The notes: generated by a model from the letters alone, not told the origin. DNA of 50,314 nucleotides from an uncultured Gammaproteobacteria bacterium (GCA_964516055.1 CAZEYK010000002.1:1-50314); one strand, 5' to 3'. Numbered from the stretch's first letter, positions 5,800 to 50,244 are shown. A program made the numbers and translations.

Positions 5800-5873
5800 T
5801 ACGCGCCAAGGGATTCGAACCCCTGACCCTCTCGGTGTAAACGAGATGCTCTAACCAACTGAGCTAGGCGCGC
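5800..5873 (-). tRNA. tRNA-Val (anticodon UAC)
   Basis: The reverse complement folds as a cloverleaf: GCGCGCC/TA/GCTC-AGTTGGTTA-GAGC/A/TCTCG-TTTACAC-CGAGA/GGGTC/AGGGG-TTCGAAT-CCCTT/GGCGCGT/A. G1:U72 is a wobble pair. CCA is not encoded. Confidence 0.93.
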
Positions 5874-13879: not shown

Positions 13880-13904
13880 ATCACTCAGAATAAAAGAGTG
13901 ATAA
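13878..13904 (+). promoter_or_regulatory. CIRCE-type HrcA operator (variant TTATCACTC-N9-GAGTGATAA)
   Basis: A perfect 9-bp inverted repeat with a 9-nt spacer. It overlaps the -10 and lies directly upstream of hrcA. It differs from TTAGCACTC-N9-GAGTGCTAA by one symmetric substitution. Confidence 0.8.
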
Positions 13905-13906
13905 TT

Positions 13907-14584: not shown

Positions 14585-14587
14585 CCT

Positions 14588-15139: not shown

Positions 15140-15158
15140 GATAAAAAATAATATATAT

Positions 15159-15608: not shown

Positions 15609-15609
15609 T

Positions 15610-15999
15610 ATGAAAATTAAATATAAAGAAAAACCCACCAGTGAAAGTGTCGATAGATATATATCAATTTTAGAAAAATATTTATCTGCATTAGATGTAA
15701 CTCTGAAATTGGAAGTTTATGATAGTCCTAACGGACCATTAGAAGAAGGTATTAATGATGTACCTATTACTAGAAGTTATTTGTGGTTAGGTAAAATGGA
15801 AGTTATATCATCTAATCTCGGAGACACATTAGAAATTATTCCACCAAGATTAGGTTTAGATGCAAATATTTCCGTAAAATCAATTTGGGATGATGCCATT
15901 GAAATTCAAAATGCTATATATAACAAATTAAATATTAGTATAACTAATATGAATGATCCATACTGGAAGTTATGGGATCATATAGAAAACATTAAATAA
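15610..15999 (+). CDS. hypothetical protein (129 aa), AT-rich orphan inside the chaperone operon
   Basis: Open frame preceded by AAGGAG (inside the hsp20 3' end) 5 nt before the ATG. I recognise no motif. A 60-nt sample (15661-15720) has 13 G+C. Confidence 0.5.
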   Translation: MKIKYKEKPTSESVDRYISILEKYLSALDVTLKLEVYDSPNGPLEEGINDVPITRSYLWLGKMEVISSNLGDTLEIIPPRLGLDANISVKSIWDDAIEIQNAIYNKLNISITNMNDPYWKLWDHIENIK

Positions 16000-16008
16000 C
16001 AATAATCA

Positions 16009-16128
16009 TGTCATCCTGAGCGGAATGAGCGAGGGACGAGCGAATGGAGTCGAAGGATCTCGAAGAATGGATAAATTTTCCTCTATCACGAGATCCTTCG
16101 ACTCCGCTGCGTTTTGCTCAGAATGACA
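16009..16128. repeat. 120-nt imperfect palindromic intergenic element (GTCATCCTGAGCG ... GCTCAGAATGAC class)
   Basis: Outer arms TGTCATCCTGAGCG (16009-16022) / GCTCAGAATGACA (16116-16128). Inner perfect 17-bp arms GGAGTCGAAGGATCTCG (16046-16062) / CGAGATCCTTCGACTCC (16089-16105). Confidence 0.85.
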
Positions 16129-16226
16129 CATAAATTAATCAATTAACTATTTAACCAACTAACAAATAACAAGCCTAGTTCCCACGAACTATTGGCTTTG
16201 AACTAATAAGTATAACCTAACACACT

Positions 16227-18179: not shown

Positions 18180-18206
18180 TCCTGCTATAGTATTACAAAT
18201 CGTGAG

Positions 18207-18231
18207 ATCCCCAGAATATTCTTCTGGGGAT
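18207..18231 (+). terminator. strong hairpin downstream of dnaK (weak or no U-run)
   Basis: 10-bp stem TCCCCAGAA.../...TTCTGGGGA with a 5-nt loop. There is no clean T-run after it. Confidence 0.45.
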
Positions 18232-18313
18232 TCCGCATATTTGTAATAATCAATCGAACGCAGTAAGACGCACATATCAAGATAAGCAAATATTCATTGA
18301 TGTATACAGTTTT

Positions 18314-18910
18314 ATGATCAAACGATACCTTTTCCTCGCATTCGCACTTATTCTCTTTGGAAGTGGACTCTTTGTTGGATATAAAGTATTTCATACGCCG
18401 GCTGAAGCGGCACAACAAATCACCGGAGAAACAATTCTTGCTGCACTCAAAAGTGAAGGATTTTTGGTAACACAAACGTATATCTTTCACGAACAAGTAG
18501 AAATAGATAAATCCACGGGGAGCACCTTTAAAGATCTGTTCTGGAAACAAAATATCACTGCCGCCGCCAACATGAAGGTAAGTGCAGGTACAAATTTATC
18601 ACATCTTGAAGAAACAGACGTACTCGTCACAAAAGATAAGGTAGAAGTAACGATACCGAATATAGAAACATACGGGGTAGAAATTCTTGGGGACATTACT
18701 CTCAACAATGAACAAGGAATTCTCAAAAAACTATTTAATAGCGAAGACGGTTACAACGAAGCAATTAAACAACTCAAAGATCAGGCACTCAGTGCCGTAC
18801 AAACAGAAGAGCTCAGACAAGAAGCACGAGAAAGCGCACAAAAAGAAGTACAAAAAATTATTGAGCTTACAAATAATACAAACAAAACCGTTATCGTACA
18901 TATAAAATAA
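18314..18910 (+). CDS. membrane-anchored hypothetical protein (DUF4230-like)
   Basis: N-terminal TM (LFLAFALILFGSGLFVGY), then ILAALKSEGFLVTQTYIFHEQVEIDKS..., which resembles the DUF4230 pattern from memory. Confidence 0.5.
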   Translation: MIKRYLFLAFALILFGSGLFVGYKVFHTPAEAAQQITGETILAALKSEGFLVTQTYIFHEQVEIDKSTGSTFKDLFWKQNITAAANMKVSAGTNLSHLEETDVLVTKDKVEVTIPNIETYGVEILGDITLNNEQGILKKLFNSEDGYNEAIKQLKDQALSAVQTEELRQEARESAQKEVQKIIELTNNTNKTVIVHIK

Positions 18911-18956
18911 TCAATCACATTTCCTTTGAATCTTAAACGAAAAATTCTGAACTATT

Positions 18957-19865
18957 ATGTCAAAAGATTACTACAATATTCTCGGTGTTGAAAAAGGTGC
19001 CACCGAAGAAGAAATTAAAAAAGCGTTTCGTAAAAAAGCACATAAACTTCATCCCGACAAAAAAGATGGGAACGAAGCCCAATTTAAAGAGGTAAATGAA
19101 GCTTATCAAATTCTGGGTGACGAAACCAAACGAAAAAAATATGATCAATTTGGATCAAACTTTGACCAACAAGGTGGTTTTGGTGGTGGGGCCGGATGGG
19201 AAGATTTTATGCATGCAAATAGAGGGAATGGGGGACAGGGTGGTCAATCATTTAATTTTCAATTTGGTGGCGAACAAGTAGACCTTGGTGATATTTTTGG
19301 AAGCATGTTTGGCTTTGGAAATTCCAATCGGCCACGAAAAGGAAGTGATGTCCAAGTAGACGTAGAGGTTACACTCAAAGAAGCTATCTCAGGATTAGAA
19401 AAAGATATTCACTTTTTTATCCAAACAAAAAATGGCAGAGAAGAACGAAAATTTTCCGTAAACATTCCTGCAGGGATTGATAGTGGACAATCTATCCGAG
19501 TAAGTGGCAAAGGACAACCATCCCCAAATGGCGGACCAAATGGAGATGTCTATATGCTCATTCACGTAAAACCCGATCTTCGGTTTGCTCGTCAGGGTTC
19601 CGACATATTTACTGAACTTACCATCAATTTTGTGCAAGCCGTACTTGGTGAAACAATAGAAATAGAAACAATAGATGGAAGAAAAAAACTTATTGTTCCG
19701 CCAGGATCAACTCATGGACAACAAATTCGGCTCAAAGGAGAAGGAATGCCAAAGCTGCACGGGAGAGGAAAAGGCGATCAATATGTAAAAATACTCATCG
19801 ATATCCCAAAACGCCCAAATCGAAAAATGAAAAATGTACTGAAAGAATTGGAAGAATTGTTATAA
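18957..19865 (+). CDS. J-domain co-chaperone, type II (DnaJ/CbpA-like, no zinc-finger domain)
   Basis: DYYNILGVEKGATEEEIKKAFRKKAHKLHPDK (HPD), a G/F-rich linker and C-terminal substrate-binding domains. There are no CxxCxGxG repeats. Confidence 0.85.
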   Translation: MSKDYYNILGVEKGATEEEIKKAFRKKAHKLHPDKKDGNEAQFKEVNEAYQILGDETKRKKYDQFGSNFDQQGGFGGGAGWEDFMHANRGNGGQGGQSFNFQFGGEQVDLGDIFGSMFGFGNSNRPRKGSDVQVDVEVTLKEAISGLEKDIHFFIQTKNGREERKFSVNIPAGIDSGQSIRVSGKGQPSPNGGPNGDVYMLIHVKPDLRFARQGSDIFTELTINFVQAVLGETIEIETIDGRKKLIVPPGSTHGQQIRLKGEGMPKLHGRGKGDQYVKILIDIPKRPNRKMKNVLKELEELL

Positions 19866-25350: not shown

Positions 25351-26507
25351 GATATCGTTCGTTTTTGGGTGCGTAAAAAGTTGAATTTGAGGCTAGGTTA
25401 TGCTAAGAAATAGGTGTTTAACTAGTTAAATTGAGTATTATGACAAAAAAAACGGAATCCGAAGTGTCCAAAATGTAGTTGTGAAAGAACCCAAAAAAGA
25501 GGTGGGCGGCGTGGATTAAAAAGATATTTTTGTAATCAGTGTCGAACATCATTTTCAATTGATCACGGACAGAAAGAAGAAATATTTTGGATTCAACACA
25601 TAGATGGGATACCAATCCGTAAATTAGCAGATGAAAGAAAAATAAGCATTAGTCAAACGTATGAAAAAATTATTGTTGAGTTGAATGCGTTGCCAAACAA
25701 TACTTTTGTAACAAAGGAATATTGTGACAGTGAAAAATTTTGTGGAATTTTAATAGTTGATGGAAAGTTTATTAAAGTAAAAGGATACAAACAAAAAATA
25801 CCGTTCATTTATTGTATTGACTACTTAACGCATGACATTCCTGTTGGAATGGTTGTGAGATCTGAAAGTGAAGAAGCATTTGAAAGTTTTTTTCAAAAAC
25901 TCAAAGATTGTAATTATCCGCTGAAGATTGTTGTCTGTGATGACCGTTCTTCCCTCGAGAAACCACTGAAAAGACATTATCCGGAAGCACTCATTCAACG
26001 ATGTTTGAATCACTATGTTGAGAATATTCGTGAGTCTTTGTATATCCGCAGTCAAAGTACACACCAACATTTTTTTAACTCAATACAAAAACATGTTTTT
26101 GAAGAATATATTGATGAAAATAATTTACAAAAACAACTTGAATACATTTTTCAAAAACATACAAAAGAAAATTTGCATCGAACAACAATTTTAAAAGATA
26201 TTTACAAACGAAGAACAGAATTATTTAACTACACCAAGGTTGATCATTGTCCAAAGAATACGAACCTCATTGAATTGTACAATTCACATTTCAATGCCAG
26301 GTTTAGAGCCCTCAAAGGCTTCAAATCTTTCGACAGTGCTCAGTGTTGGTGTAATGCACTTCTACTTCGTAGAAGAACCAAACCATTGACCGATTGCAAA
26401 GCGAAATTCAAACATCTCAATGGCATCGCTTCGCTCCGACTGACATTAAAAAACAGGCTCATTGGCCTGATAATTTCTTAAAAAACGCACCCAAAACCGA
26501 ACGCTAA
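25351..26507 (+). mobile_element. insertion sequence, 1157 bp, single ZnF-HTH-DDE transposase (IS1/IS6/IS1595-like; family unresolved)
   Basis: Terminal inverted repeats: GATATCGTTCGTTTTTGGGTGCGT (25351-25374) versus the reverse complement of ACGCACCCAAAACCGAACGCTAA (26485-26507). Over the inner 19 nt, 18 match. The element is flanked by 10-bp direct repeats. Confidence 0.85.
25440..26481 (+). CDS. DDE transposase with N-terminal zinc finger; the frame is broken at an A8 run after codon 2
   Basis: ATG 25440 is in frame 0. The long open frame (25444-26481) is +1 relative to it, and the two are joined only through A8 (25445-25452). Motifs: CPKCSCE...CNQC, an HTH-like IPIRKLADERKISISQTY, VDGKFIKVKG, VVCDDRSS, TNLIELYNSHFNARFRALKGFKS. 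Confidence 0.8.
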
Positions 26508-32806: not shown

Positions 32807-34849
32807 ATGAAACTCAAACTCAAATCAGATTACAAACCAGCAGGCGATCAACCCAATGCAATCAACGGGCTTGTTGACGGAATAAAAAAGGGATACGGGA
32901 AACAAACCCTTCTTGGTGTTACCGGATCTGGAAAAACGTTTACCGTCGCCAACGTCATTGAACAAACGCAACTTCCCACGCTTGTTATCGCCCACAACAA
33001 AACACTTGCAGCACAGCTTTGCAATGAATTTCGGGAATTTTTTCCAAATAACGCAGTAGAATATTTTGTTAGCTATTACGATTACTATCAACCGGAAGCA
33101 TACATTTCATCAAGCGATACCTACATAGAAAAAGAAGCCCAGGTAAACAACGAAATTGATCGACTTCGTCATGCCTGTACGCAGGCCCTCCTTACAAGAA
33201 AAGATGTTATCATCGTTGCCTCCGTATCTGCCATCTACGGTCTTGGATCTCCAAAAGAATATGAACAAATTGTTTTGCATCTTCGTAAAGGCGACGTCCT
33301 TGATCGCAGAGGAATGATGGAGCATCTTATCTCCATGCAATTCACCAGAACCACCACCGATCTTACACGTGGAAACTTTCGTATGCGCGGTCAAGTATTT
33401 GAAATCATGCCAGTCAATGAAGAACGCATTTACCGATTTGAAATTAGTAAACACATCGACCACATAGAACTCATTGATCCTGTAACACGAAAAATTATTC
33501 ATCCTGATCTTGAAGATGCCTGGTTTTTTCCAGCCAAACATTACGTGGCAAGTCCCGAAGCTCGCGAACAAGCTGTGGGAAGAATTGAAGCAGAATTAAA
33601 AACACAACTTGCGTTATTTAAAAAACAAGGAAAAGTCCTTGAACACGAACGACTCAAACGGCGAGTAAAACATGATGTAGAGCTCATAAAAAATATTGGC
33701 TATTGCAATGGGATAGAAAATTATTCAAGATTATTTGAAGGAAGAGAAGAAGGGGAACCGCCATTTACTCTTCTTGATTATTTTCATTATTCTTCACCAG
33801 ATTTTCTTACGGTTATTGATGAATCCCATGTCACAGTATCGCAAGTTCGTGCTATGTACAAAGGAGACAGAGCAAGAAAGGAATCACTAGTAGAACATGG
33901 ATTTCGTTTACCAAGCGCAAAAGATAATAGACCACTGCAATATCACGAATTTGATGAACGAACAAAAAAAATGCTGTATGTTTCTGCCACACCAAACGAA
34001 TATGAATTAGGCGAAAGTGAGCAAGTAGTGGAACAAATCGTTCGGCCAACAGGACTTGTTGACCCCGAAGTGGTTATTCGTCCAATTACCGAAACAAAAG
34101 AGAATCCCTCACAAGTAGACGATGTCATTACCGAAATTCAAGCACAAATCAAAAAAGGGGATCGAACACTCGTTACCACCCTTACCAAAAAAATGGCCGA
34201 GGATATTACCGAATATCTCAAGAAAAAGGGTATCAGTGTGTCGTATCTCCATAGTGATATTGATACCATCGAACGAATTGAAATCATTATGAAACTCAGA
34301 CAAGGGGAGATTGACGTCATCGTTGGGGTCAATTTGCTTCGTGAAGGATTAGACATTCCTGAAGTGTCACTTGTTGCCATCCTCGACGCGGACAAAGAAG
34401 GCTTTCTTCGTAGTAAAACCAGTCTTATTCAAACAATTGGTCGTGCTGCTCGTAATGCCGATGGACGGGTTATTCTCTATGCCGACAACATGACAAATTC
34501 AATAGATAAAGCGATAGAAGAAACAGATCGTCGTCGAAACATTCAGCTTGCATATAATAAAAAACATGGCATCACGCCACAAACCATTCAAAAGAGCATC
34601 CGAAACATTCTTGAAGAATTTGGTATCGATCCCGAAGCCCAGAAGCAAAAACGCAAAAAAGGAAAAGGTGGATCACGTGGCGCTAAAACGCTTGCTCTCG
34701 ATACCATCGGCGACGACCGCCCGATTAAAGAACAAATCAAAGATAGAGAACAACAAATGAAAGAAGCTGCCAAAAATCTCGAATTTGAACTCGCCGCCAT
34801 TTTGCGAGATGAAATTCATGAACTCAAAAAAGTAGATCGAAAAAAATAA
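32807..34849 (+). CDS. uvrB: excinuclease ABC subunit B
   Basis: GVTGSGKTFT, DESHVT, helicase motifs, and a C-terminal UVR domain (EFELAAILRDEIHELKK). Confidence 0.97.
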   Translation: MKLKLKSDYKPAGDQPNAINGLVDGIKKGYGKQTLLGVTGSGKTFTVANVIEQTQLPTLVIAHNKTLAAQLCNEFREFFPNNAVEYFVSYYDYYQPEAYISSSDTYIEKEAQVNNEIDRLRHACTQALLTRKDVIIVASVSAIYGLGSPKEYEQIVLHLRKGDVLDRRGMMEHLISMQFTRTTTDLTRGNFRMRGQVFEIMPVNEERIYRFEISKHIDHIELIDPVTRKIIHPDLEDAWFFPAKHYVASPEAREQAVGRIEAELKTQLALFKKQGKVLEHERLKRRVKHDVELIKNIGYCNGIENYSRLFEGREEGEPPFTLLDYFHYSSPDFLTVIDESHVTVSQVRAMYKGDRARKESLVEHGFRLPSAKDNRPLQYHEFDERTKKMLYVSATPNEYELGESEQVVEQIVRPTGLVDPEVVIRPITETKENPSQVDDVITEIQAQIKKGDRTLVTTLTKKMAEDITEYLKKKGISVSYLHSDIDTIERIEIIMKLRQGEIDVIVGVNLLREGLDIPEVSLVAILDADKEGFLRSKTSLIQTIGRAARNADGRVILYADNMTNSIDKAIEETDRRRNIQLAYNKKHGITPQTIQKSIRNILEEFGIDPEAQKQKRKKGKGGSRGAKTLALDTIGDDRPIKEQIKDREQQMKEAAKNLEFELAAILRDEIHELKKVDRKK

Positions 34850-36621: not shown

Positions 36622-36649
36622 TTGACATATCATACCGATAAGGTATACT
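36622..36649 (+). promoter_or_regulatory. candidate uvrA promoter (TTGACA-N16-TATACT)
   Basis: Hexamers at 36622-36627 and 36644-36649, about 135 nt upstream of the uvrA ATG. Confidence 0.45.
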
Positions 36650-36785: not shown

Positions 36786-39362
36786 ATGCAAGATAAAATT
36801 TCTATCAAAGGTGCTCGTGAACACAACCTCAAAAACATCACTGTTGAACTTCCACGAAATCAGATGATTGTGTTTACCGGACTTTCAGGCTCAGGAAAAA
36901 GTAGCCTTGCTTTTGATACCATATTTGCCGAAGGACAGAGGCGGTATGTGGAAAGTCTATCTGCTTACGCTCGGCAATTTCTTGGCAATATGCAAAAGCC
37001 AGACGTTGATGAAATAGAAGGTTTGTCTCCGGCAATTTCAATCGATCAAAAAGCACACAGTGCCAATCCACGTTCTACCGTTGCCACCATTACTGAAATT
37101 TATGATTATCTTCGTGTCCTCTTCGCTCGGGTGGGAAAACCACATTGTCCACTCTGTGGTACCAAAATAGAAAAAATGACGACAGAAGAAATGGTAGAAA
37201 AAATAGAAATAGGATTAACAAAAGACAAAAAGAAAAAAGCGAAACAAGATGAAGGACTCTTAATTCTTGCCCCCGTTGTCCGTGGAAGAAAAGGGGAGTA
37301 CTACCAAATGCTCTATGACATGTACAATTCAGGATTTCTTGAAGTACGCGTGGATGGAGTGATAAAAAGTCTTCGTAATAAAATTATCCTCTCAAAAAAC
37401 AAAAAACACAGCATAGAAATTATTATCGATAAAATTCCCGTTACCAAACTAGACAAAGCTCGGTTAGCCGAAGCCGTTGAAACAGCCGTTGATTTATCAA
37501 ATGGACTGTGTACAGTTATTTACCCGAGCATAGAAGAACAAATTCTCAGCACAGAATACTCTTGCCCCAAAGATGGATTTAGTTTTCCAGAAATTGAGCC
37601 ACGTCTGTTTAGTTTCAACAGTCCATACGGGCAATGCCAAGACTGTACCGGGCTTGGAACAAAAGAACTATTCAGCGAAGAACTTTGCCCAACTTGCGAA
37701 GGAAAACGGCTAAACAAAAATGCCCTTAGTGTAAAAATTGGTGAAAAAAATATATTCGATATCGTTTCCCTCACTATAGAAGATGCTAAAGATTTTTTTA
37801 TTTCACTCAATCAGACCTTAAGTGAACAAGAAATAGAAATTTCCAGTGCCGCACTTCGTGAAGTCAATAACCGACTACAATTTATGTTCAACGTCGGATT
37901 ACATTACCTCACGATGCATCGTCGAGCCGGAACGCTCTCTGGTGGAGAAGCACAGCGCATTCGCCTTGCCTCACAAGTGGGGCAACAACTTGTCGGTGCG
38001 CTCTATGTACTCGACGAGCCAACCATTGGTTTGCACCAACGGGATAACGATCAACTAGTGTCAACCCTCCGCAATCTTTGTGATATTGGAAACACAATTA
38101 TCGTTGTAGAACATGATGAAGATACTATTCTCGTCAGCGATTGGATTGTTGATATTGGACCGGGAGCAGGAAAGCACGGCGGAAATGTTGTCTACTCTGG
38201 ACCGCTCAGCGAATTATTAAAGAAACAACATTCCACCAAACAAGAATCCACCAAAGTGAGTGATTGTATGGTTATTGGTGAGGCAAAAAATTCATTAACA
38301 GGAAAATACCTCCGTGGCGAAGAAAAAATAGATGTTCCTACAAAAAGAAGAAAAGTAGACAAATCTTCTGCCAAAATAAAAATCAAAGGTGCCGAAGAAA
38401 ATAATCTCAAAAATATCGATGTCGAAATTCCGCTCAAACGGTTTGTTTGTCTTACTGGTGTTTCTGGATCAGGAAAATCAACACTCATGCATCGTATTCT
38501 TCATCGAACCATTGCCAACAAACTCAACCACGTCAACAAAAAAACAGGGAAACATAAATCGCTCACAGGAATAGAATATATTGATAAAATTATCAAAATA
38601 GATCAAAAACCAATTGGACGAACTCCAAGAAGTAATCCTGCTACCTATACCAAGGCGTACGACCACATTCGTGATCTTTTCGCCTCAACACCAGAAGCAA
38701 AAATTCGTGGCTATAAAAAAGGGCGGTTCAGTTTCAATAGACCTGGTGGTCGGTGTGAACATTGTGAAGGAAAAGGGACATTGAAAATAGAAATGCACTT
38801 CCTTCCTAGCGTAGAAATTATTTGTGATGTGTGTAACGGCAAACGATTTGACCACGAAACCTTACAAGTGCATTACGCCAAGAAAAACATTTCAGATGTT
38901 CTGGGCATGACGGTAGAAGAAGCCAAAGAATTTTTTCAAGATATTCCACCAATTGCTGATAAGCTCAATATGCTCAGCGATGTGGGACTTGATTATCTTA
39001 CTCTTGGGCAATCGGCAACCACATTATCCGGTGGAGAAGCACAACGCATCAAACTTTCAAAAGAACTTTCAAAACGAAACACCACCCGCACATTATATCT
39101 TCTCGACGAACCAACTACAGGGCTTCATTACGCCGATGTAAAAAAACTGATAGAAGTGTTGCAAAAGTTAGTTTCTCAAGGGAATACTATAATGATTATC
39201 GAACACAACCTTGATCTTATTAAGTGCGCCGATTGGATTATTGATCTTGGCCCAGAAGGGGGAGACAAAGGAGGAGAAGTTGTTACTTGCGGGACCCCCG
39301 AACAAGTTGCTATAGTAGGAAAAAGTCATACAGGACAATATCTAAAAAGATTACTTAAATAA
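36786..39362 (+). CDS. uvrA: excinuclease ABC subunit A (short form, insertion domain absent)
   Basis: GLSGSGKSSLAFDT, LSGGEAQRIRLA, GVSGSGKSTL, LSGGEAQRIKLS, zinc modules CQDC...CPTC and CEHCEGKG...CDVCNG. Confidence 0.97.
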   Translation: MQDKISIKGAREHNLKNITVELPRNQMIVFTGLSGSGKSSLAFDTIFAEGQRRYVESLSAYARQFLGNMQKPDVDEIEGLSPAISIDQKAHSANPRSTVATITEIYDYLRVLFARVGKPHCPLCGTKIEKMTTEEMVEKIEIGLTKDKKKKAKQDEGLLILAPVVRGRKGEYYQMLYDMYNSGFLEVRVDGVIKSLRNKIILSKNKKHSIEIIIDKIPVTKLDKARLAEAVETAVDLSNGLCTVIYPSIEEQILSTEYSCPKDGFSFPEIEPRLFSFNSPYGQCQDCTGLGTKELFSEELCPTCEGKRLNKNALSVKIGEKNIFDIVSLTIEDAKDFFISLNQTLSEQEIEISSAALREVNNRLQFMFNVGLHYLTMHRRAGTLSGGEAQRIRLASQVGQQLVGALYVLDEPTIGLHQRDNDQLVSTLRNLCDIGNTIIVVEHDEDTILVSDWIVDIGPGAGKHGGNVVYSGPLSELLKKQHSTKQESTKVSDCMVIGEAKNSLTGKYLRGEEKIDVPTKRRKVDKSSAKIKIKGAEENNLKNIDVEIPLKRFVCLTGVSGSGKSTLMHRILHRTIANKLNHVNKKTGKHKSLTGIEYIDKIIKIDQKPIGRTPRSNPATYTKAYDHIRDLFASTPEAKIRGYKKGRFSFNRPGGRCEHCEGKGTLKIEMHFLPSVEIICDVCNGKRFDHETLQVHYAKKNISDVLGMTVEEAKEFFQDIPPIADKLNMLSDVGLDYLTLGQSATTLSGGEAQRIKLSKELSKRNTTRTLYLLDEPTTGLHYADVKKLIEVLQKLVSQGNTIMIIEHNLDLIKCADWIIDLGPEGGDKGGEVVTCGTPEQVAIVGKSHTGQYLKRLLK

Positions 39363-39367
39363 TCACT

Positions 39368-40933
39368 ATGTTTAGAGAAGGACAAAGAAATCCAGGACAA
39401 GAATTTCAAATAAAACCTCCCAAAAAAGAATCTCCAGGAGAAAAATTTCAACGGGAAACGAGAGAAACATTAGAAGAAATGAAAAAAACAGCAGAAATAA
39501 AAAGAAACCTTAAAGGAAAATCTGTCCCACTAGAAAAAGTGGGTGAAGCAATTGGTGAAGATACTGGAGAATTTAATGTAGATGAAGTAATGGCGGACAC
39601 GGAGAGCTTATGGGGAGCTTCCCCAGACACAAAAGAAACAACGATAGATGCAAAAGAAGCAACAAAAGAAACGTATGCAGGTGATCCTCGAGATTCTCAA
39701 AACTACGTAGCTTCAGCAGAAGCTCCAAATACGGGTGAGTTTGATGCTGTTGATAAAAAACCAACACTAAAAGATTCTCGCTATACGCTAACCAAAGAAC
39801 TTGGAGAAGGAGGATTGGGAACCGTATATCTTTCTGAACGACGTCCATACGGAAAAGCAGATACTAATGACAATGTCACACAAGTTGCCGTAAAAGTAAT
39901 AAAAGCAAATCAATTAAAATGGATGTCTGAAGCAGCACAAGAAGATGCCAAAGCAAGATTTAAACGAGAGATGCATGCACAAGTTGAAGCATCACAGCGA
40001 TCTCCGTTTATTGTAGAAATTTTAGATGCCCCAGAAATAGAAGGAGAAAAAGATAGCATGGCGCTTGTGTTAGAATATTTCAAAGAAGGAGATATCGAAT
40101 CGTTCATGGAAAAAGGAAAAGGATTACCAGAAGAAACCGTTTGTTCAATAGCAGTACAAACAGCACTCGGATTAGCCGAGATGCACAAAAAAGGTATTCT
40201 TCATAGAGATCTGAAGCCCGCAAATATGTTTGTGGACACACTCAGTACCGTGGTAAATGAAGATGGCAAAGAATCCATTGATCCTGCATTACGAAAAGAA
40301 CATATAGCAACAGGAAACATTCATATAAAGATTGGAGATTTTGGTATTTCCACACTAACAGGTGACAAAAAACAACAAATAGAAGCTGCCAAGGATACTC
40401 AGGATGCCAAAAATACCCTGACACAAAGTGATCAAGTATTGTCCAGTAAAATTACCCAAGAAGGATCAATCGTTGGGACTGTTGCGTATCTTTCTCCAGA
40501 AGGGGCACTTGGTGAATCACAAGGAACTGATGAAGATTTATATCAATTAGGAACCGTACTGTATGAATTGTTATCAGGAAAACTTCCCTACGAGGAAGGT
40601 TCTATTATGAAAATGGTCAGTCAAAAAATGAGCAAAGAAAAACATGTGAATGATGCTATGGGGAGAAAAGAAGAAAATATGTTGCATCGTATAGTAAATA
40701 CACTCATTAACCCAGATCCAGAAAAAAGGAAAAAAATGGAATGGAACGGAGCCTCATTCGATTTATCGTCGGCCTCTGCTGTTGCAAGAACAATTACTGA
40801 ATATATCACAAACAAACAGACGCCAATGGTATCATCGATAGAAAGTTCAGCTCCTACAGAAGAAAGCCCTGTCAGCCCACGACAGTTTCCTTATCTGTAT
40901 GTTGGTGGAGTACGAGATTTTTCTGCCCAATAA
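39368..40933 (+). CDS. Hanks-type Ser/Thr protein kinase 1 (521 aa, cytoplasmic)
   Basis: LGEGGLGTVY, VAVKVIK, HRDLKPANMF, DFGIS, GTVAYLSPE. Acidic, disordered N-terminus. No TM. Confidence 0.85.
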   Translation: MFREGQRNPGQEFQIKPPKKESPGEKFQRETRETLEEMKKTAEIKRNLKGKSVPLEKVGEAIGEDTGEFNVDEVMADTESLWGASPDTKETTIDAKEATKETYAGDPRDSQNYVASAEAPNTGEFDAVDKKPTLKDSRYTLTKELGEGGLGTVYLSERRPYGKADTNDNVTQVAVKVIKANQLKWMSEAAQEDAKARFKREMHAQVEASQRSPFIVEILDAPEIEGEKDSMALVLEYFKEGDIESFMEKGKGLPEETVCSIAVQTALGLAEMHKKGILHRDLKPANMFVDTLSTVVNEDGKESIDPALRKEHIATGNIHIKIGDFGISTLTGDKKQQIEAAKDTQDAKNTLTQSDQVLSSKITQEGSIVGTVAYLSPEGALGESQGTDEDLYQLGTVLYELLSGKLPYEEGSIMKMVSQKMSKEKHVNDAMGRKEENMLHRIVNTLINPDPEKRKKMEWNGASFDLSSASAVARTITEYITNKQTPMVSSIESSAPTEESPVSPRQFPYLYVGGVRDFSAQ

Positions 40934-40954
40934 AATATAATCATATCGCAGTAT

Positions 40955-42280
40955 ATGTCAGAACAAAAAAGTCGATCAGGACAAGAATTTTCTATAAAAA
41001 AAGGAGAACCAGAACCAAAGAATATTGTTCCTATTATTGATTCAACCATAAGCGAGATTTTGCCATTAGTAAAAAAGAACACTTCAGAAAGTAGTGCAAA
41101 TCATCCCCCACAAACAACCATTGACACAGGAAAAAAATCTCAAGAAATTAAAATAGGCACAATAGAAAAAAATGGGAAATACCGGTTTGTCAAAAAACTG
41201 GGTGAAGGTGGTATGGGAGAAGTGTGGCTAGTAGACGAAATGGATAAATGCTATGAAGAACAAGGAACAACAGTTTGCGCACAATCCGTGGTAAAAGTGA
41301 TAAAACCAACCCTATTGAATTCTGAAAAACAAAAAAAAGATTTTAAAAGAGAAATGGACGCCATGGTTGATGTAGAAAATGAATTTATCGGTCGAGTTTT
41401 TGATACCTATGAAGAACATGGAGACATGCGAATAGTGATGGAATATCTTTCAGGAGGAGACGCATTTACTCTTATTGGAGAAATGCGCAATAATAAGCAA
41501 GACTATCCACCCCAAAGAAGAGAACAACTGTCTGCTGCCATTGGCTATCAAGTTGCCTTGGCATTGGAATACATGGCAACACGGCATGTATTACATCGAG
41601 ATTTGAAAGCACCTAATGTGTTAATTCAAAACGGTGTATTTGAACAGTTTCCATTGGCAAAAGTTATTGATTTTGGTTTGGTAAAGTACCTGAATGGTCC
41701 AAATGCAGAGGGAAAAAACTTGAGATCTTCTACGGAATTTCTTCCCATTTCACCAGATGACACAATAGATGATACAACACAACATGAAACAGAACCAGGT
41801 CAAATAAAAGGAACTCCGTATAGTATGCCGCCGGAGACAATTAAAGGAGAAAAAGCTACCTATCAAACAGACAGCTATGCCTTGGGGTTATTGATGTACC
41901 AATTAGCGGCCGCTAATGAAACACCCTTTGATAAAAGTGGTGCCGATTTTTTTCTATTAAAACAAAAAACAGAAAATGCATTTAAACCACTTCATGAACA
42001 ACTGGGATACGCATCTCCTACAACATTTACACAAATTGTAGAAACACTCATGGATGGTAATCTTCTTGAGCGTGAACTGTTAATAATAAATACGGAAGGG
42101 GAAAGAATACGATTATCAAAAATAACAAACGCCAAAGAATATGATGATAAAAATATTATTTTTCTCCAAAATCCAACTGAAATAAAAAAGGCAATTCGCA
42201 ATGCCATTATTGAAGAATATCCAGAACTAGCACAAGAAGATCCTTTTGCTATCACGGAATTACCTAAAAGAGAGAGATAA
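40955..42280 (+). CDS. Hanks-type Ser/Thr protein kinase 2 (441 aa)
   Basis: LGEGGMGEVW, VVKVIK, HRDLKAPNVL, DFGLVK, GTPYSMPPE. The C-terminal module is shared with kinase 3. Confidence 0.85.
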   Translation: MSEQKSRSGQEFSIKKGEPEPKNIVPIIDSTISEILPLVKKNTSESSANHPPQTTIDTGKKSQEIKIGTIEKNGKYRFVKKLGEGGMGEVWLVDEMDKCYEEQGTTVCAQSVVKVIKPTLLNSEKQKKDFKREMDAMVDVENEFIGRVFDTYEEHGDMRIVMEYLSGGDAFTLIGEMRNNKQDYPPQRREQLSAAIGYQVALALEYMATRHVLHRDLKAPNVLIQNGVFEQFPLAKVIDFGLVKYLNGPNAEGKNLRSSTEFLPISPDDTIDDTTQHETEPGQIKGTPYSMPPETIKGEKATYQTDSYALGLLMYQLAAANETPFDKSGADFFLLKQKTENAFKPLHEQLGYASPTTFTQIVETLMDGNLLERELLIINTEGERIRLSKITNAKEYDDKNIIFLQNPTEIKKAIRNAIIEEYPELAQEDPFAITELPKRER

Positions 42281-42331
42281 AAGTATACAAAAAGTTTCAA
42301 TATACCATTCTATTATTTTCTATGTAACTAT

Positions 42332-43699
42332 ATGGAAACACCATCTATTACACCAGAGGAGAGAGTTGAACAAAATAAAGTAAGTGACATAAAAATTGGA
42401 GAAAAAATTAAGGGAAAAATACCTGCTATTGAAATACGAAAAACAAAAGAGGTTGAACCTGGAACCATAGAGAATGGTAAGTATCGATTTACAAAGAAAC
42501 TGGGTGAAGGGGCCATGGGAAGTGTGTGGGAAGTTGATGATATAACGAAATGTTATGAAAAAAATGGGAAAGAAGAATGTGCAAACGCTGTAGTAAAAGT
42601 ACTAAAATCAGGGGCTACCGTTACAGAGCAAGCAAAACAACGGTTGCGACAAGAATTAGATACGATGATTAAGTCAGAATCGGAATTTGTTGCACGCGTA
42701 TATGATGTATACGAAGAAGAAGGAGAAACAAGAATCGTAATGGAAAAAATTAATGGAAAAGATGGAGGAGATCTCTTAAAGGATATGCTGAAAAATAGAG
42801 AACAATACTCTCCAGAAAGAAGAGAACAATTAGGTGCTGCCATTGCCTATCAAGTTGCTCTTGCATTAGAAGAAATGCAAAAAGTAGGAATTGTCCATAG
42901 AGATTTGAAAGTAGCAAATATTATGTTGGTAGATGGGGTGTTTGAAAATTTCCCTTTGGTAAAGGTCTTGGATTTTGGGGTTGCAAAAGAAATGCAGCCA
43001 GAAGAAAATTCGACAAAGCCTTTTGACTCACAAAATTTTCTTCCAATAACACCAAATGAAACACCACAAATGAATAATCTAACAAGAGATGGTGTTATTA
43101 TGGGCACACCATTTTATATGCCTCCAGAAATGGGAGATTCATTTTTAGATAAAAAAACAAGTCCAAGAGATAGTGAATTTGCAAAAGCAGACACCTATGC
43201 GCTCGCAATGATGTCCTATATTATCACAGCAGCAAACAATCCTTTTAGCATGAAGAATAGAAAAGATGCCTTTGTGCGTGAACAAAAAAAGAATAATGAG
43301 TTTCCACCGCTCCATGAGCAACTAGGATACGAATCACCAACAAGATATACGCAGCTCATAGAAACCTTGATGGATGGTGATCCAACAGAGCGTCAAATCA
43401 TGATAATAGATAAAGATGGAGTAAGAAAGCGGTTATCTGAAATGCAAGAAGGAGAAGGCTATGAAGATAAAACAATTATTTCACTCAAAAATCCTACGGA
43501 AATAAAAACAGCCATTCGAGATGCCATCGTAGAAGAATATCCAGAACTAGCACAAGAAGATCCTTTTTCTATTACCGCACTTCCGTCACGGGATAAACAA
43601 AGTTCTTCCCCCACTCAACAAGAAGAGTCTCCACAACCCCCTGCAACAACGCCGCCAAAATCAGGATTTTTTAATAAAATAAAAGGATTATTTAGCTAA
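42332..43699 (+). CDS. Hanks-type Ser/Thr protein kinase 3 (455 aa)
   Basis: LGEGAMGSVW, VVKVLK, HRDLKVANIM, DFGVAKE, GTPFYMPPE. The C-terminal module is shared with kinase 2, followed by a P/Q/S-rich tail. Confidence 0.85.
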   Translation: METPSITPEERVEQNKVSDIKIGEKIKGKIPAIEIRKTKEVEPGTIENGKYRFTKKLGEGAMGSVWEVDDITKCYEKNGKEECANAVVKVLKSGATVTEQAKQRLRQELDTMIKSESEFVARVYDVYEEEGETRIVMEKINGKDGGDLLKDMLKNREQYSPERREQLGAAIAYQVALALEEMQKVGIVHRDLKVANIMLVDGVFENFPLVKVLDFGVAKEMQPEENSTKPFDSQNFLPITPNETPQMNNLTRDGVIMGTPFYMPPEMGDSFLDKKTSPRDSEFAKADTYALAMMSYIITAANNPFSMKNRKDAFVREQKKNNEFPPLHEQLGYESPTRYTQLIETLMDGDPTERQIMIIDKDGVRKRLSEMQEGEGYEDKTIISLKNPTEIKTAIRDAIVEEYPELAQEDPFSITALPSRDKQSSSPTQQEESPQPPATTPPKSGFFNKIKGLFS

Positions 43700-43704
43700 A
43701 ATAG

Positions 43705-43731
43705 AAAGAGTCGGTTACGCGGCTCTTTTTT
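43705..43731 (+). terminator. intrinsic terminator after the kinase array
   Basis: 7-bp stem AGAGTCG (43707-43713) / CGGCTCT (43720-43726), followed by TTTTT. Confidence 0.7.
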
Positions 43732-43794
43732 GGTATATAACGGAACCACATTGAATCAGCAAGAATTTCATAGTAGTATAAACAAAGAATAGCT

Positions 43795-45069
43795 ATGGAA
43801 AAAAATACTATAGAAAAACTCAAGAAAAAAATACAAACATTTCCAGATGAACCAGGCATCTATCAATTTTTTGATACAAAAAAAGAACTCATCTACGTAG
43901 GCAAAGCCACTTCACTCAAAAACCGTGTGAAAAGTTATTTTATTGGCAAAAGAACCAGTCGACCAATAGAACAAATGATCCATCAAGTAGCCAGCATTAC
44001 ATACAAGCAAACAGACTCCGTGATAGAAGCCATCATCCTTGAATCAAACTACATAAAAAAATACAAACCAAAATATAACGTCATCAGCAAAGACGACAAA
44101 TCATGGAACTATCTCGTCATTACCAAAGATGAATATCCACTGGTAATTCCAATCCGTCAGCATGAACTCAAACAGAAAATTGAACAAGAGATCAAAAAAG
44201 AATTTCAATACGTGTTTGGTCCATACCCCGGTCTTGCCCAAAAACCAACCATGAAAGTACTTACCAAACTTTTCAATCTTTCGACTTGTCAAAAAAACAA
44301 GAAAGCAAAAAAACAAAAAAAACCGTGTTTATATAGACAAATGGGGCAATGTCTTGGTGTCTGCACCGGAGAAATAACCTCAGCAGTATACAAACAAAAA
44401 GTTATAAAACCGCTTGTAACCTTTCTTCGTGGCGGGAAAAAGCGTCTCCTCACCAGCATCAAAAAAAATATGCAACAAGCGGCAAAAGAAAAACAATTTG
44501 AAGAAGCCGCACGGCTTCGTGACCAACTTCACAACCTCCAAAAAATTCAAGATGTTACCCTCATAAATAAATCGTTCTTCGAAACAGAAGAAACAAATAC
44601 TCAAGAATTCATCACAAAAATAGAAGGATACGATATCTCAAATTTGGGGACCACCGGGAAAGTCGGTTCCATGGTCGTTTTTGTTCATGGTGAACCAGAC
44701 AAAACACAGTACCGAAAATTCAAAATAAAAACGGTTGAAGGACAAAGTGACGTCGACTGCCTCGATGAAGTTCTTACCAGAAGACTCAAACATAATGAAT
44801 GGAAGTATCCAGATTTATTTTTAATCGACGGCGGACTCCCACAAGTAAATCGTATTAAAAAAGTATTCAAAAAAACAGGCATTCAGATTCCCATCATTGG
44901 TATTGCCAAAGGGTCAGATCGAAAGAAAAATGAAATCATTCTTGGCACCACAGATCGAGAAATTATTAAATGGGTATACAAACATACCAAAATACTTATC
45001 CGTGTCAGAGATGAAGCTCATAGATTTGCAATCAAGTTTCAACGCGAGCAACGAAAACTAAAAGCATAA
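43795..45069 (+). CDS. uvrC: excinuclease ABC subunit C (short form, no C-terminal (HhH)2)
   Basis: GIY-YIG (PGIYQFFD...LIYVGKATSLKNRVKSYF), UVR domain (EEAARLRDQLHNLQKI), and endonuclease domain (IEGYDISN...LIDGGLPQV...RDEAHRFAI). The protein ends right after that. Confidence 0.92.
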   Translation: MEKNTIEKLKKKIQTFPDEPGIYQFFDTKKELIYVGKATSLKNRVKSYFIGKRTSRPIEQMIHQVASITYKQTDSVIEAIILESNYIKKYKPKYNVISKDDKSWNYLVITKDEYPLVIPIRQHELKQKIEQEIKKEFQYVFGPYPGLAQKPTMKVLTKLFNLSTCQKNKKAKKQKKPCLYRQMGQCLGVCTGEITSAVYKQKVIKPLVTFLRGGKKRLLTSIKKNMQQAAKEKQFEEAARLRDQLHNLQKIQDVTLINKSFFETEETNTQEFITKIEGYDISNLGTTGKVGSMVVFVHGEPDKTQYRKFKIKTVEGQSDVDCLDEVLTRRLKHNEWKYPDLFLIDGGLPQVNRIKKVFKKTGIQIPIIGIAKGSDRKKNEIILGTTDREIIKWVYKHTKILIRVRDEAHRFAIKFQREQRKLKA

Positions 45070-47484: not shown

Positions 47485-50244
47485 ATGTTATTTGAAAAAG
47501 GAAAAGACATATCACTTGCGCCATATAGTCCACACCAATCAGGACTATTTGCTAAACTAAAATATACAAAAGACACCGGAATAAAACATGCTCAAATTAT
47601 TCGGAACAGTGTGTTATTTTGGGGGAAGCCTCTCACCAATTATCACATCACACTCAGGAGATACCGTCAGTATTTGCGAAACTTTCAATTTATAGGGAGT
47701 TTAATATTTACCGTAGGTTTCCTGGGTATATTTTTTTATATTGTTACCAAACAAGAATTCACAGATAAACTTTTTACCGTTAAATTTTGGACAGTTGCCG
47801 GGGAAAACCCAGTAAGAGTGCTCTTGTGGTTATCTGCCATATCATTTGGGTATCTTGTGTATCGGCTGGTAACAACAACACCTCATACCATACAAGTTGA
47901 TGAAATTGAACAAAACAAAGATCTTTTCACAGATAGAACAATTGAACAGCAAGACTCCATGGTAACTGTTGCCCCAGATCAAATTGCAAAAAAACATCAT
48001 CACGATATTTCTGCTGTATATACCGAAGAAACCATACACATCCTCGAACAAGCATTCATTACCGCAAAAATGTACAAAAACGCACAAGTAGAAATAGAGC
48101 ATCTGTTCTATGCACTCCTGCAAGCACCAAGTATGAAAGCCATTTTTCTTCGCTTAGGTATTGCTGTCACCTCTATTGAAAAAGGATTAAAAACTTATTT
48201 TTCACAACAAGAACATATCACCGCAACGCCAACCATAAACAGCGATGTAGAACAAATACTCTATATGGCATATGATGAAGCTTATAGAGCACGTCAGCCA
48301 TACGTACACATCACAGAATTGCTTGTATCAGTAATAAAAAAATCAGAAAAATTACAAGAAGTACTCTATGAATTAAACATTGATAAACAAAAGCTCCTCA
48401 ATGTAATTGAATGGGTTCGTGTTCGAGAAATGCTTATCATGCGTAAAAAATCATTTTATAAAGCTGCCCGAAAACGAAGTAAAAGCGGCATAGACAGAGC
48501 CATGACAGCCGTTGCAACACCATTTTTGGATTCATTTAGCCAAGATATTACTCTCGCCGCAAAGTATAATCATCTTGAACCCTGTGTTGCCAGAAATAAA
48601 GAAATTCAAGAAATATTTCGTATTATTGATGGTGGTCGGCAAAGTATTGTTCTTACGGGAGAACACGGGGTAGGAAAGATGAGTATTGTTGAAGGAATAG
48701 CTCAGCTCATGATAGAAGACAACGTTCCCAAACGATTACAAGACAAGCGACTCGTACAATTATCAACATCATCACTTATCGCTGGTACAACGGTAAATGG
48801 AGCCATTGATCGACTACAAAAGATCATGTTTGAAATTGCTCGTGCTGGCAATATTATTTTGTTTATCAATAGTATTCACGATCTGGTAAGCATCGCTGGA
48901 GATAGCGAAGGGCTCGATGTATCAGAAGCATTATCCGAATATCTTGGGCCAGGAAGATTCTTGACCATTGCCACTACCACCATTGATGGCTACAACAAAC
49001 ATATTGCAAATAGCCAAGTCGGTAGTGTGTTCGCAAGAGTCAACATTGATCAAATGAATGAAAACCAAGCCATACAAGTATTAGAATCAAAAGTTGGTCG
49101 AGTTGAGTATAAACATCACGTATTTTTTTCGTATGATGCCTTAGAACAATCGGTAACACTCGCTGGAAAATTTCTTCACGATCAGCGGCTTCCAGAAAGT
49201 GCCATCAGCATCATGGCTGAAGCAGCAAGTTATACCAGACAAAAAAAGGGAGAAAACACCCTTGTCTCAGGAAATGACGTTGCTATCATCATTGGAGAAA
49301 AAACAGGTATCCCTACCGCCAGTATTTCAGAAGACGAATCTTCAAAACTGTTGCGTTTAGAAGAAGAAATGCACAAAAAAGTTATTGGGCAAGATGAAGC
49401 CGTTATTTTGGTATCAAGTGCCCTTCGTCGTGCCCGCGCAGAAATTCGTTCCAAAAAAAGGCCAATTGCGAACTTTCTTTTTCTGGGACCAACTGGGGTA
49501 GGAAAAACAGAACTTGCCAAAACTATTGCGAGTGTCTATTTTGGTGGTGAAGACAAAATGATCCGTATTGATATGAGTGAATTTCAAGATAAAAGCGGTA
49601 TATATCGACTCATTGGACAACCAGGAAAACAGGGGACTGGTATTCTTACCGAAGCCGTTCGCCAGCAACCATTTTCCCTTGTACTTCTCGACGAAATGGA
49701 AAAGGCAGATCCAAATATTCTCAATTTATTTTTGCAAGTATTTGATGATGGGCGACTAACAGATAGCGTAGGAAGGTTGATTGACTTCACTAATACCATC
49801 ATCATTGCCACATCAAACGCTGCTACCGACTATGTATCAAAGCGCCTTGCCGAACAGGCCCTGCTCGAAGATATTCGTCAAGAACTTGTGCGTGGAGAAT
49901 TAAAACAATATTATCGACCGGAGTTTCTCAATCGGTTTGATGGCATTGTGCTTTTCCGTGCACTCAGACGGGAAGAAATAAAGCAAATTGCTGCGCTTAT
50001 GCTCCAGCGTGTTGCCAAAGATTTAGAAACACGTGGAGTAGCACTTGAAGTGCAAGATGTCGCGCTCGAAGCACTGGCTGAAGTTGGGTTTGATCCAGAA
50101 TTTGGAGCACGGCCCCTGCGTCGTGCTATCCAAGATTATATAGAAAATAAACTCGCCGACCTTGTGCTCAAAAATGAACTCAAACGTCGCGACACCATCG
50201 TTATTGGAGAAAACATGGGTATTTCAATAAAACACACTGCATAG
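47485..50244 (+). CDS. Clp/Hsp100 AAA+ ATPase (ClpA/B/C family) with N-terminal 2-TM extension and degenerate D1
   Basis: Two Clp_N repeats (LFYALLQAPSMKAIFLRLGI; ELLVSVIKKSEKLQEVL). D1 reads GEHGVGKMSIVEGIA and ILFINSIHDL. D2 reads GPTGVGKTELAK, LVLLDEMEKA, FRPEFLNRFDG. Confidence 0.88.
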   Translation: MLFEKGKDISLAPYSPHQSGLFAKLKYTKDTGIKHAQIIRNSVLFWGKPLTNYHITLRRYRQYLRNFQFIGSLIFTVGFLGIFFYIVTKQEFTDKLFTVKFWTVAGENPVRVLLWLSAISFGYLVYRLVTTTPHTIQVDEIEQNKDLFTDRTIEQQDSMVTVAPDQIAKKHHHDISAVYTEETIHILEQAFITAKMYKNAQVEIEHLFYALLQAPSMKAIFLRLGIAVTSIEKGLKTYFSQQEHITATPTINSDVEQILYMAYDEAYRARQPYVHITELLVSVIKKSEKLQEVLYELNIDKQKLLNVIEWVRVREMLIMRKKSFYKAARKRSKSGIDRAMTAVATPFLDSFSQDITLAAKYNHLEPCVARNKEIQEIFRIIDGGRQSIVLTGEHGVGKMSIVEGIAQLMIEDNVPKRLQDKRLVQLSTSSLIAGTTVNGAIDRLQKIMFEIARAGNIILFINSIHDLVSIAGDSEGLDVSEALSEYLGPGRFLTIATTTIDGYNKHIANSQVGSVFARVNIDQMNENQAIQVLESKVGRVEYKHHVFFSYDALEQSVTLAGKFLHDQRLPESAISIMAEAASYTRQKKGENTLVSGNDVAIIIGEKTGIPTASISEDESSKLLRLEEEMHKKVIGQDEAVILVSSALRRARAEIRSKKRPIANFLFLGPTGVGKTELAKTIASVYFGGEDKMIRIDMSEFQDKSGIYRLIGQPGKQGTGILTEAVRQQPFSLVLLDEMEKADPNILNLFLQVFDDGRLTDSVGRLIDFTNTIIIATSNAATDYVSKRLAEQALLEDIRQELVRGELKQYYRPEFLNRFDGIVLFRALRREEIKQIAALMLQRVAKDLETRGVALEVQDVALEALAEVGFDPEFGARPLRRAIQDYIENKLADLVLKNELKRRDTIVIGENMGISIKHTA

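Follow-up and report, generated by a model that had tools for sequence, protein, structure and literature searches.

A small family of Hanks-type Ser/Thr kinases encoded between uvrA and uvrC in Candidatus Magasanikbacteria

What are three protein kinase genes doing between two genes of nucleotide excision repair (NER)? This question is raised by a DNA stretch of 50,314 nucleotides (GCA_964516055.1, CAZEYK010000002.1:1-50314), referred to in its entirety as the window, in which three consecutive genes for Hanks-type Ser/Thr kinases, designated K1, K2 and K3, are situated between uvrA and uvrC. Hanks-type kinases are common in bacteria and their inputs are mostly obscure when a sensor domain is absent. 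The present family, which has no sensor domain, keeps to a single operon, uvrA-uvrC, in nine species despite kinase identities of 16–49 %, and it therefore allows a testable guess on the input (UvrA or DNA damage) and on the timing of expression.

The anatomy of the kinases and their conserved membership of the operon are put forward with high confidence. A real functional tie to repair or DNA damage, suggested by the genomic context, seems possible but somewhat doubtful, and the preferred reading, according to which the kinases would constitute an accessory phospho-signalling arm of the NER operon, is a tentative one that stops short of being probable. Should the link prove functional, bacteria would have a new pathway by which the recognition of DNA lesions leads to protein phosphorylation; otherwise, the locus provides a clean case of a fast-evolving accessory family confined to a hotspot between core genes.

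The host is a Candidatus Magasanikbacteria bacterium from groundwater and belongs to the Candidate Phyla Radiation (CPR), whose members are ultra-small and uncultured and have hardly been investigated for their regulation. With UvrC as the query, 80 loci at 51–63 % identity were found in 185,579 species genomes, and most of those bearing a specific lineage title belong to Candidatus Magasanikbacteria. Many of the 80 are labelled generically or evidently wrongly, e.g. "uncultured Gammaproteobacteria".

Position of the kinase genes and history of the slot

The initial annotation of the window had described the uvrA-K1-K2-K3-uvrC layout, with the gene lengths, the common strand and spacers of 5, 21 and 51 nt, and had placed uvrB, uvrA and uvrC within 12.3 kb. 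The six-frame list of open reading frames (ORFs) reproduced all of these exactly, with uvrA, the three kinase genes and uvrC on the + strand and 12,263 nt between the uvrB start and the uvrC end.

An exhaustive HMMER search with a K1-K3 profile against 1.84 billion cluster representatives, in which genomic context was not used, gave four non-self matches aligning as a single stretch: P0143 (301 bits), P0144 (295 bits), P0146 (287 bits) and P0178 (210 bits). P0143, P0144 and P0146 cover nearly the whole profile and P0178 covers positions 5-332 of 380; the remainder of the top 150 were multi-domain or generic kinases. All four proteins found blind to context are encoded between uvrA and uvrC. 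At the P0144 locus (L091), uvrA (82 % identical to that of the window) is followed after 14 nt by the kinase gene and after a further 12 nt by uvrC. The P0146 locus (L092) contains uvrB, a DUF218 gene and uvrA, then, after 13 nt, the kinase gene and the start of a second one, and in the P0143 locus (L093) the kinase gene is followed after 32 nt by uvrC (72–73 %) and then by mraZ. The P0178 locus (L094) has the order uvrA, kinase gene, a 420-aa ORF without an assigned family, uvrC. This additional ORF (L094:4710-5972) lies on the same strand, overlaps the end of the kinase gene and has no Pfam or PADLOC match.

A further four species loci (L011, L038, L107 and L108) emerged from neighbourhood scans, and overall the position is the same in nine of nine loci: every family member with a readable context is encoded between uvrA and uvrC and in their orientation. 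The arrangement, which the initial annotation had proposed to look for in related genomes, extends to eight further species-level loci, the four context-blind ones included. The distance from the uvrA stop to the first kinase ATG is 5, 8, -4, 14, 13, 21 and 45 nt in seven loci. In the window, the last kinase stop and the uvrC start are 95 nt apart and a terminator lies between them; in L011 the two genes overlap, and the other distances are 12, 32 and 20 nt.

Other searches were less productive. K3 alone in a word-indexed protein search retrieved only generic kinases at no more than 35 % identity, and a profile of the C-terminal tail described below (A3) retrieved only the K2 cluster of the window's own species. 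The word-indexed search missed P0143, P0144 and P0146, scored at 287–301 bits by HMMER, so its negatives are weak for fast-evolving families. A metagenome pattern scan derived from a three-sequence tail alignment matched 317 stretches, none of which was a relative.

In relatives, the backbone uvrB-(DUF218)-uvrA-slot-uvrC-mraZ-rsmH-clpB recurs, and 62 of the 80 species loci have uvrA ahead of uvrC in the same orientation. The size of the uvrA-uvrC slot varies from a 16-nt overlap to 7.8 kb. Some slots are empty, and the cargo of others comprises a biopterin-dependent aromatic amino-acid hydroxylase, riboflavin synthesis genes, a phage-type integrase, dihydroorotate dehydrogenase, M15 and M23 peptidases and many ORFs without a family. 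Kinase genes occupy the slot in two of the 62 species-representative loci, L011 (four kinase genes and an M23 peptidase gene) and L038 (one kinase gene), and in one (L107) of the 59 metagenome loci of the Joint Genome Institute (JGI) that have both uvrA and uvrC. A further short JGI contig, L108, carries the tail of a kinase directly upstream of uvrC. Wherever a kinase gene shares the slot with other cargo (L038, L094, L107), it is the kinase gene that adjoins uvrA.

The family tree separates a subfamily B, made up of K2, K3 and the kinases of L093, L091 and L092 (33–49 % identity, with K2/K3 as the most recent split), from a loose subfamily A of K1 and the kinases of L038, L094 and L107 (26–31 % identity), while L011 underwent a separate expansion of its own. 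Subfamily-B kinases are found in all of the nearest relatives of the window, namely L091 (82 %) and L092 (78 %) by UvrA and L093 (72–73 %) by UvrC, and L094 and L107 form a sister pair (UvrC 83 %). The closest relatives of L011, L038 and L108 have no kinases. Kinase identities of 16–49 % compare with 67–82 % for the flanking UvrA; between L091 and the window, UvrA is 82 %, UvrC 64 % and the kinase 37–40 % identical. The kinases are far more diverged than the flanking UvrA, so the linkage has persisted through extensive sequence divergence. The simplest reading of these comparisons would be that the kinases entered the slot long ago and were lost many times.

Descent by itself could produce such a pattern. 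An ancestral member of Magasanikbacteria might have gained a soluble Hanks kinase gene after uvrA, which was kept or lost by descent, borrowed the uvrA promoter and served targets unrelated to repair, in envelope growth or division. The backbone is conserved, so inserted genes tend to stay, and the subfamily-B kinases shared by L091, L092 and L093, like the sister pair L094/L107, form a vertical pattern. Kinases were lost in most species, in which NER was retained. Regulation of the envelope and division is moreover the role of most bacterial Hanks kinases, and the possible membrane-targeting helix of the K3 type (see below) and the dcw-type genes mraZ and rsmH just downstream are in line with it. 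However, the tight same-strand junction with uvrA was kept in seven species despite the turnover of the slot, no family member was found elsewhere by the uvrC-locus scans and the exhaustive HMMER search, and operon membership in bacteria usually signifies a shared condition of use. Purely inherited position is considered somewhat unlikely as the explanation.

Several members of the family show decay. The first kinase gene of L011 (L011:4348-5529) encodes HGD in place of HRD and DYE in place of DFG and is without the Gly-loop or VAIK, and the kinase gene of L107 (L107:658-1977) encodes HGD for HRD and DAG for DFG; judging from these motifs, both products are likely pseudokinases. Another kinase gene of L011 (L011:5574-6602) carries one TAA in frame, at 6138-6140, with both halves matching the kinase profile and the second also the tail profile, and could be a pseudogene or reflect an assembly error.

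Such features are also expected of a conflict system, i.e. of anti-phage or host-interaction kinases, comparable to the single-gene defence kinases PD-T4-6 or Stk2, residing in a variable hotspot bounded by uvrA and uvrC. The slot resembles an integration hotspot in its gaps (-16 nt to 7.8 kb), its mixed cargo and one integrase. The kinases outpace their neighbours, expand in tandem, decay to pseudokinases and are patchily distributed, and the PADLOC kinase models mad6, PD-T4-6 and Stk2 match them with up to 167 bits. On the other hand, the PADLOC and NCBIfam matches are limited to the generic kinase domain and fall far under the NCBIfam cutoffs, no partner defence genes lie beside the window kinases, and a viral structure search returned generic giant-virus kinases only. 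A fixed placement on the uvrA side, with spacers of the kind seen in translational coupling, is also atypical of hotspot cargo, and a role in conflict is regarded as distinctly unlikely.

The losses in most relatives, the in-frame stop and the degenerate motifs of L011 could finally suggest that the kinase genes are neutral passengers without current function, on their way to disappearance. In the window, however, all three ORFs are full-length and retain every catalytic motif. Proteins of the window locus were found only in contigs of one organism, with a constant gene arrangement, and the K3 translation was identical in all 10 loci fetched out of 21 contigs from several samples. The variant contig differs from the window in two of 6007 bases, both changes being nonsynonymous (K1 S418R and K3 K443N); two differences in the sole variant contig are too few for a strain-level dN/dS estimate. 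CPR genomes are small and quick to lose useless DNA. That the genes are mere relics is highly improbable.

Catalytic domain, activation segment and C-terminal tail

K1, K2 and K3 match the Pfam Pkinase family (PF00069) with E-values of 9.5e-36, 2.4e-31 and 4.8e-32 and scores of 124, 109.5 and 111.8 bits, respectively, against a gathering cutoff of 31.7. All of them carry the Gly-loop, the VAIK Lys, the αC Glu, HRDLKxxN, DFG, xPE, the subdomain IX Asp and the subdomain XI Arg, in agreement with the full catalytic set attributed to them initially. The three proteins are catalytically intact cytoplasmic Hanks-type Ser/Thr kinases with putative phosphotransfer activity. The lack of a transmembrane (TM) helix and of sensor domains was likewise confirmed: the best 19-residue Kyte-Doolittle mean is 0.9–1.2 and a Pfam scan of K1-K3 gave no match to PASTA, FHA or another sensor domain. 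No PP2C gene, the absence of which had also been remarked upon, and no FHA gene was present among the window ORFs scanned.

K2 and K3 are paralogues over their whole length (50 % identity over approximately 390 residues). K1 is 26 % identical to K3, its NTLINPDPEKR aligning with ETLMDGDPTER of K3, and consists of a low-complexity N-terminus of approximately 130 residues, a kinase domain at residues 139-456 with an extra insert between HRD and DFG, and the family tail ending in FPY. The GQEF(Q/S)IK motif, reported initially as common to the N-termini of K1 and K2, is real and at the DNA level comprises 14 identical bases (CAGGACAAGAATTT) plus ATAAAA. It is 7 residues long, and none was seen in K3 or in the printed N-termini of other family members, which were inspected by eye with no search made.

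A bilobal kinase fold is supported for K3 by structure prediction. The AlphaFold2 (AF2) model built from a 71-sequence alignment has a mean predicted local distance difference test (pLDDT) value of 79.9, and the majority of the 10-residue blocks in its core reach at least 90; it superseded an unusable model (pLDDT 53) obtained from a three-sequence alignment. In a Foldseek search of the PDB, the modelled K3 matched best PknA, PknB and Stk1 (E approximately 1e-13 to 1e-15, target-normalised TM-score 0.75–0.82), and the best PDB sequence matches were StkP and PknA.

Two features depart from the ordinary catalytic domain. The DFG-to-PE activation segments had been singled out as unusually long, and they comprise 53–56 residues in K1-K3 and 44–64 residues across the other family members. 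The second feature is the tail. A C-terminal module of approximately 110 residues had been assigned to K2 and K3, and an extra ordered tail does exist, but the first approximately 30 residues of the supposed module (PLHEQLGY...ETLMDGDPTER) are kinase subdomains X-XI with helices αH-αI, K2 and K3 are similar throughout and not in the module alone, and K1 is tailed too. The Pfam match in K3 stops at residue 354, the Arg of ETLMDGDPTER. The genuinely extra part in K2 and K3 corresponds to approximately 60–70 residues after subdomain XI, and the K1 version is shorter (family range 50–70).

The tail of K3 is predicted by AF2 to contain strands at 356-359, 365-366 and 381-384 and a helix at 388-402, with block means of 92–97 over residues 351-410. 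It aligns across all 14 family sequences (K1-K3 and 11 others) as a short strand, a Gly, a second strand, a helix of the pattern L-x-[TS]-[AP]-x-x-[VIL]-x-x-[AT]-[IL] and an end of the [FY]P[FY] type; the full pattern is present in K1-K3 and most of the 11 others, two of which end with variant motifs. Subfamily B has approximately 17 extra residues between the strands and K1 an insert before FPY. Among 285 proteins, a tail-only hidden Markov model matched every family member and none of approximately 260 generic kinases, even at E<=10. Pfam and PDB structure searches returned nothing that accounts for the tail, the structural matches being confined to the kinase core, and a well-known unrelated domain, which would have pointed to a different role, was not encountered. 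The tail and the disordered, Ser/Thr-rich activation segment of 44–64 residues define a small kinase family, all members of which found to date come from Candidatus Magasanikbacteria (Patescibacteria/CPR).

Beyond the tail, K3 ends with an S/T/P-rich linker and a basic and hydrophobic helix, and similar C-termini are present in the kinases of L091 (GSWWQRVKRMFS) and L093 (GVFASIKKWLGR). These presumably resemble the membrane-targeting helices of MinD and FtsA, and the helix of K3 is possibly an amphipathic, membrane-targeting one. A hydrophobic-moment calculation on the K3-type C-terminus did not discriminate.

Expression of the locus and the possible link to repair

The features of the window are collected in Table 1.

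Table 1. Features of the kinase locus and other features of the window
Feature	Position	Strand	Description
uvrB	32807..34849	+	680 aa; NF003673 987.9 bits (cutoff 743)
Candidate promoter	36622..36649	+	sigma-70-like consensus TTGACA-16-TATACT, 11/12 matches, upstream of uvrA
uvrA	36786..39362	+	858 aa; NF001503 1294.6 bits (cutoff 1147); PF17760 (UvrB-binding domain) present
K1	39368..40933	+	521 aa; subfamily-A kinase
GQEFxIK motif of K1	39395..39415		N-terminal
K1 activation segment	40337..40501	+	residues 324-378, DFG to SPE; 55 residues, 12 Ser/Thr
K2	40955..42280	+	441 aa; subfamily-B kinase, recent K3 paralogue
GQEFxIK motif of K2	40979..40999		N-terminal
K2 activation segment	41669..41836	+	residues 239-294; 56 residues
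K3	42332..43699	+	455 aa; subfamily-B kinase
K3 activation segment	42971..43129	+	residues 214-266; 53 residues; predicted disordered, pLDDT <50 at 219-253
K3 family-specific ordered tail	43394..43576	+	residues 355-415; EEYPELAQEDPF motif
K3 C-terminal helix	43658..43696	+	KSGFFNKIKGLFS; basic and hydrophobic, follows linker; AF2 helix 446-454, low confidence
Intrinsic terminator	43703..43733	+	11-bp stem, 6-nt loop, U-run; after K3
uvrC	43795..45069	+	424 aa; TIGR00194 336.4 bits (cutoff 285.45)
tRNA gene	5800..5873	-	the only match of an Rfam scan of the window
Heat-shock cluster	13898..19865	+	hrcA-grpE-hsp20-(129-aa ORF)-dnaK-DUF4230-dnaJ
Transposase ORF	25681..26481		truncated, Mutator family (IS256-like); 266 aa, TTG start, profile positions 201-361 of 379
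clpB	47485..50244		downstream of mraZ-rsmH

The hairpin with a T-run that had been noticed after the third kinase gene stands out from its surroundings: the stretch 43703-43730 folds with a free energy (dG) of -13.5 kcal/mol (z -4.08) and none of 200 shuffles folds as well. The uvrA-K1, K1-K2 and K2-K3 spacers are no more stably folded than their shuffles, no internal terminator was found between uvrA and the end of K3, and a hairpin upstream of uvrA (approximately 36686-36710) is not better than shuffles (z -1.2 and -1.8). The sequence upstream of uvrA listed in Table 1 is a candidate promoter of the uvrA-K1-K2-K3 unit; in the region, sigma-70-like consensus sites are as numerous as expected from shuffling. 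Co-transcription of the kinase genes with uvrA, as envisaged initially, is quite likely in view of the spacing and the placement of the terminator, and translational coupling with uvrA is probable. The transcript would comprise uvrA-K1-K2-K3 here, ending at the terminator, and would continue into uvrC in other species.

All three equivalog matches of the UvrABC set exceed their NCBIfam cutoffs. UvrC has the GIY-YIG, UVR and RNase H-like endonuclease domains in Pfam and is without the C-terminal helix-hairpin-helix (HhH) tail. UvrA keeps the UvrB-binding domain and is without the insertion domain of approximately 110 residues: its alignment to Geobacillus stearothermophilus UvrA (2r6f) spans chain residues 21-306 and 417-956 only, skipping 307-416. 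UvrA also carries an insert of approximately 20 residues at about residues 479-498. UvrC of relatives matches over the same approximately 415 residues, and it is longer in L094 (507 aa) and L107 (582-aa ORF). Judged by match lengths in relatives, the reduction of UvrA (no insertion domain) and UvrC (no HhH tail) appears to be clade-wide.

Some Uvr alignment columns are enriched in kinase-bearing genomes (e.g. UvrA D732 in four of six against none of 83 and UvrC I391 in seven of seven against 21 %). They were rejected as kinase-linked sites, since shared ancestry could explain them and the residues are not Ser/Thr.

In the preferred reading, of an accessory phospho-signalling arm of the NER operon, the kinases would be made whenever UvrA is made, because co-transcription of their genes with uvrA is predicted and translational coupling is probable. 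The kinase would be switched on by autophosphorylation in its long activation loop and could then phosphorylate Uvr proteins or downstream targets. Division or envelope proteins may be candidate targets because of the adjacent mraZ-rsmH cluster and the possibly membrane-targeting C-terminus of K3.

A bolder version of the idea assumes a checkpoint, in which UvrA engaged at a lesion would recruit or activate the co-translated kinase, leading to phosphorylation of repair or division proteins, with the tail as a docking element. In some CPR bacteria this would amount to an analogue of the damage-kinase signalling of eukaryotes that is coupled to NER and takes DNA damage or foreign DNA as its input. 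Both the mechanism and the analogy are unlikely to hold in this form.

Several observations weigh against the proposal of a phospho-signalling arm attached to NER. The link to DNA-damage or foreign-DNA sensing, or to Uvr substrates, is drawn from operon context, and the shared position on the uvrA side could be simply inherited. The whereabouts of family members are known from the uvrC-locus scans and the representative search only. The distribution is patchy: approximately 3 % of Magasanikbacteria species carry the kinases and NER there does not need them, and in other species the slot is variable, being empty or filled with unrelated cargo including an integrase. Approximately 97 % of related species have no slot kinase and yet appear to share UvrA without the insertion domain and UvrC without the HhH tail, so that this reduction does not go together with the kinases. 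Fast evolution, lineage-specific expansions (three genes here, four in L011), the in-frame stop and the degenerate motifs are what conflict genes or genes under relaxed constraint typically show. Cheo-type LexA boxes (GAAC-N4-GTTC with at most one mismatch) number 17 in comparison to 19.6 expected, and none is located upstream of uvrA or uvrB. In sum, accessory, fast-evolving and sometimes degenerate kinases in a variable slot fit non-repair roles equally well.

Comparison with known kinases

A literature search found no description of kinases in uvr or NER operons, of Hanks kinases in CPR bacteria or of kinases from Magasanikbacteria. The best-matching characterized proteins, PknA, PknB, Stk1 and StkP, share with K1-K3 the catalytic domain and its motifs. 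K1-K3 differ from them in having no TM helix, PASTA or other sensor domain, in an activation segment approximately twice as long, in the extra ordered C-terminal tail and in the location of their genes inside the uvrA-uvrC operon. The PASTA kinase equivalog NF033483 scores K1, K2 and K3 at 145, 93 and 83 bits, far from its cutoff of 450, and only the kinase-domain part of this 563-position profile is aligned, with the best stretches within positions 4-158.

The kinases of defence systems (PD-T4-6, Stk2, MAD6 and PglW of BREX) are similar in that their kinase-domain profiles match K1-K3 and in being patchy, fast-evolving, tandemly expanding and encoded at a variable locus. They differ in that no methylation, BREX or other partner genes are found in the window and the position next to uvrA is fixed. 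Scores of 56–76 bits for MAD6 (NF047741, cutoff 460) and 21–41 bits for PglW (NF033442, cutoff 990) place K1-K3 outside these families, and the PADLOC matches cover the kinase domain only.

An ordered segment following helix αI is also a property of CaMK and AGC kinases, and CaMKII and CDPK were among the top structures, with approximately 355–365 aligned columns. The rmsd (root-mean-square deviation) is however approximately 10 Å, the tails have no sequence similarity and there is no calmodulin-type partner, so the likeness is one of analogy only.

With respect to a possible role, the nearest parallels are kinases connected with DNA. RqkA of Deinococcus radiodurans is a DNA-linked bacterial Ser/Thr kinase. 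YabT of Bacillus subtilis has a TM helix, whereas K1-K3 have none by computation, and neither YabT nor RqkA is known to be encoded in a uvr operon. YabT is a Hanks kinase dependent on single-stranded DNA that phosphorylates RecA (review, PMC4754617). K1-K3 resemble YabT and RqkA as Hanks-type kinases without an extracellular sensor, for which signalling of DNA damage or integrity is suggested here by the operon context. The likeness is by role and context, and DNA binding or activation by DNA is putative for K1-K3. Set against these known systems, the catalytic domain of K1-K3 is ordinary, and what is new is the tail, an activation loop of doubled length shared by the whole family, and the conserved operonic position.

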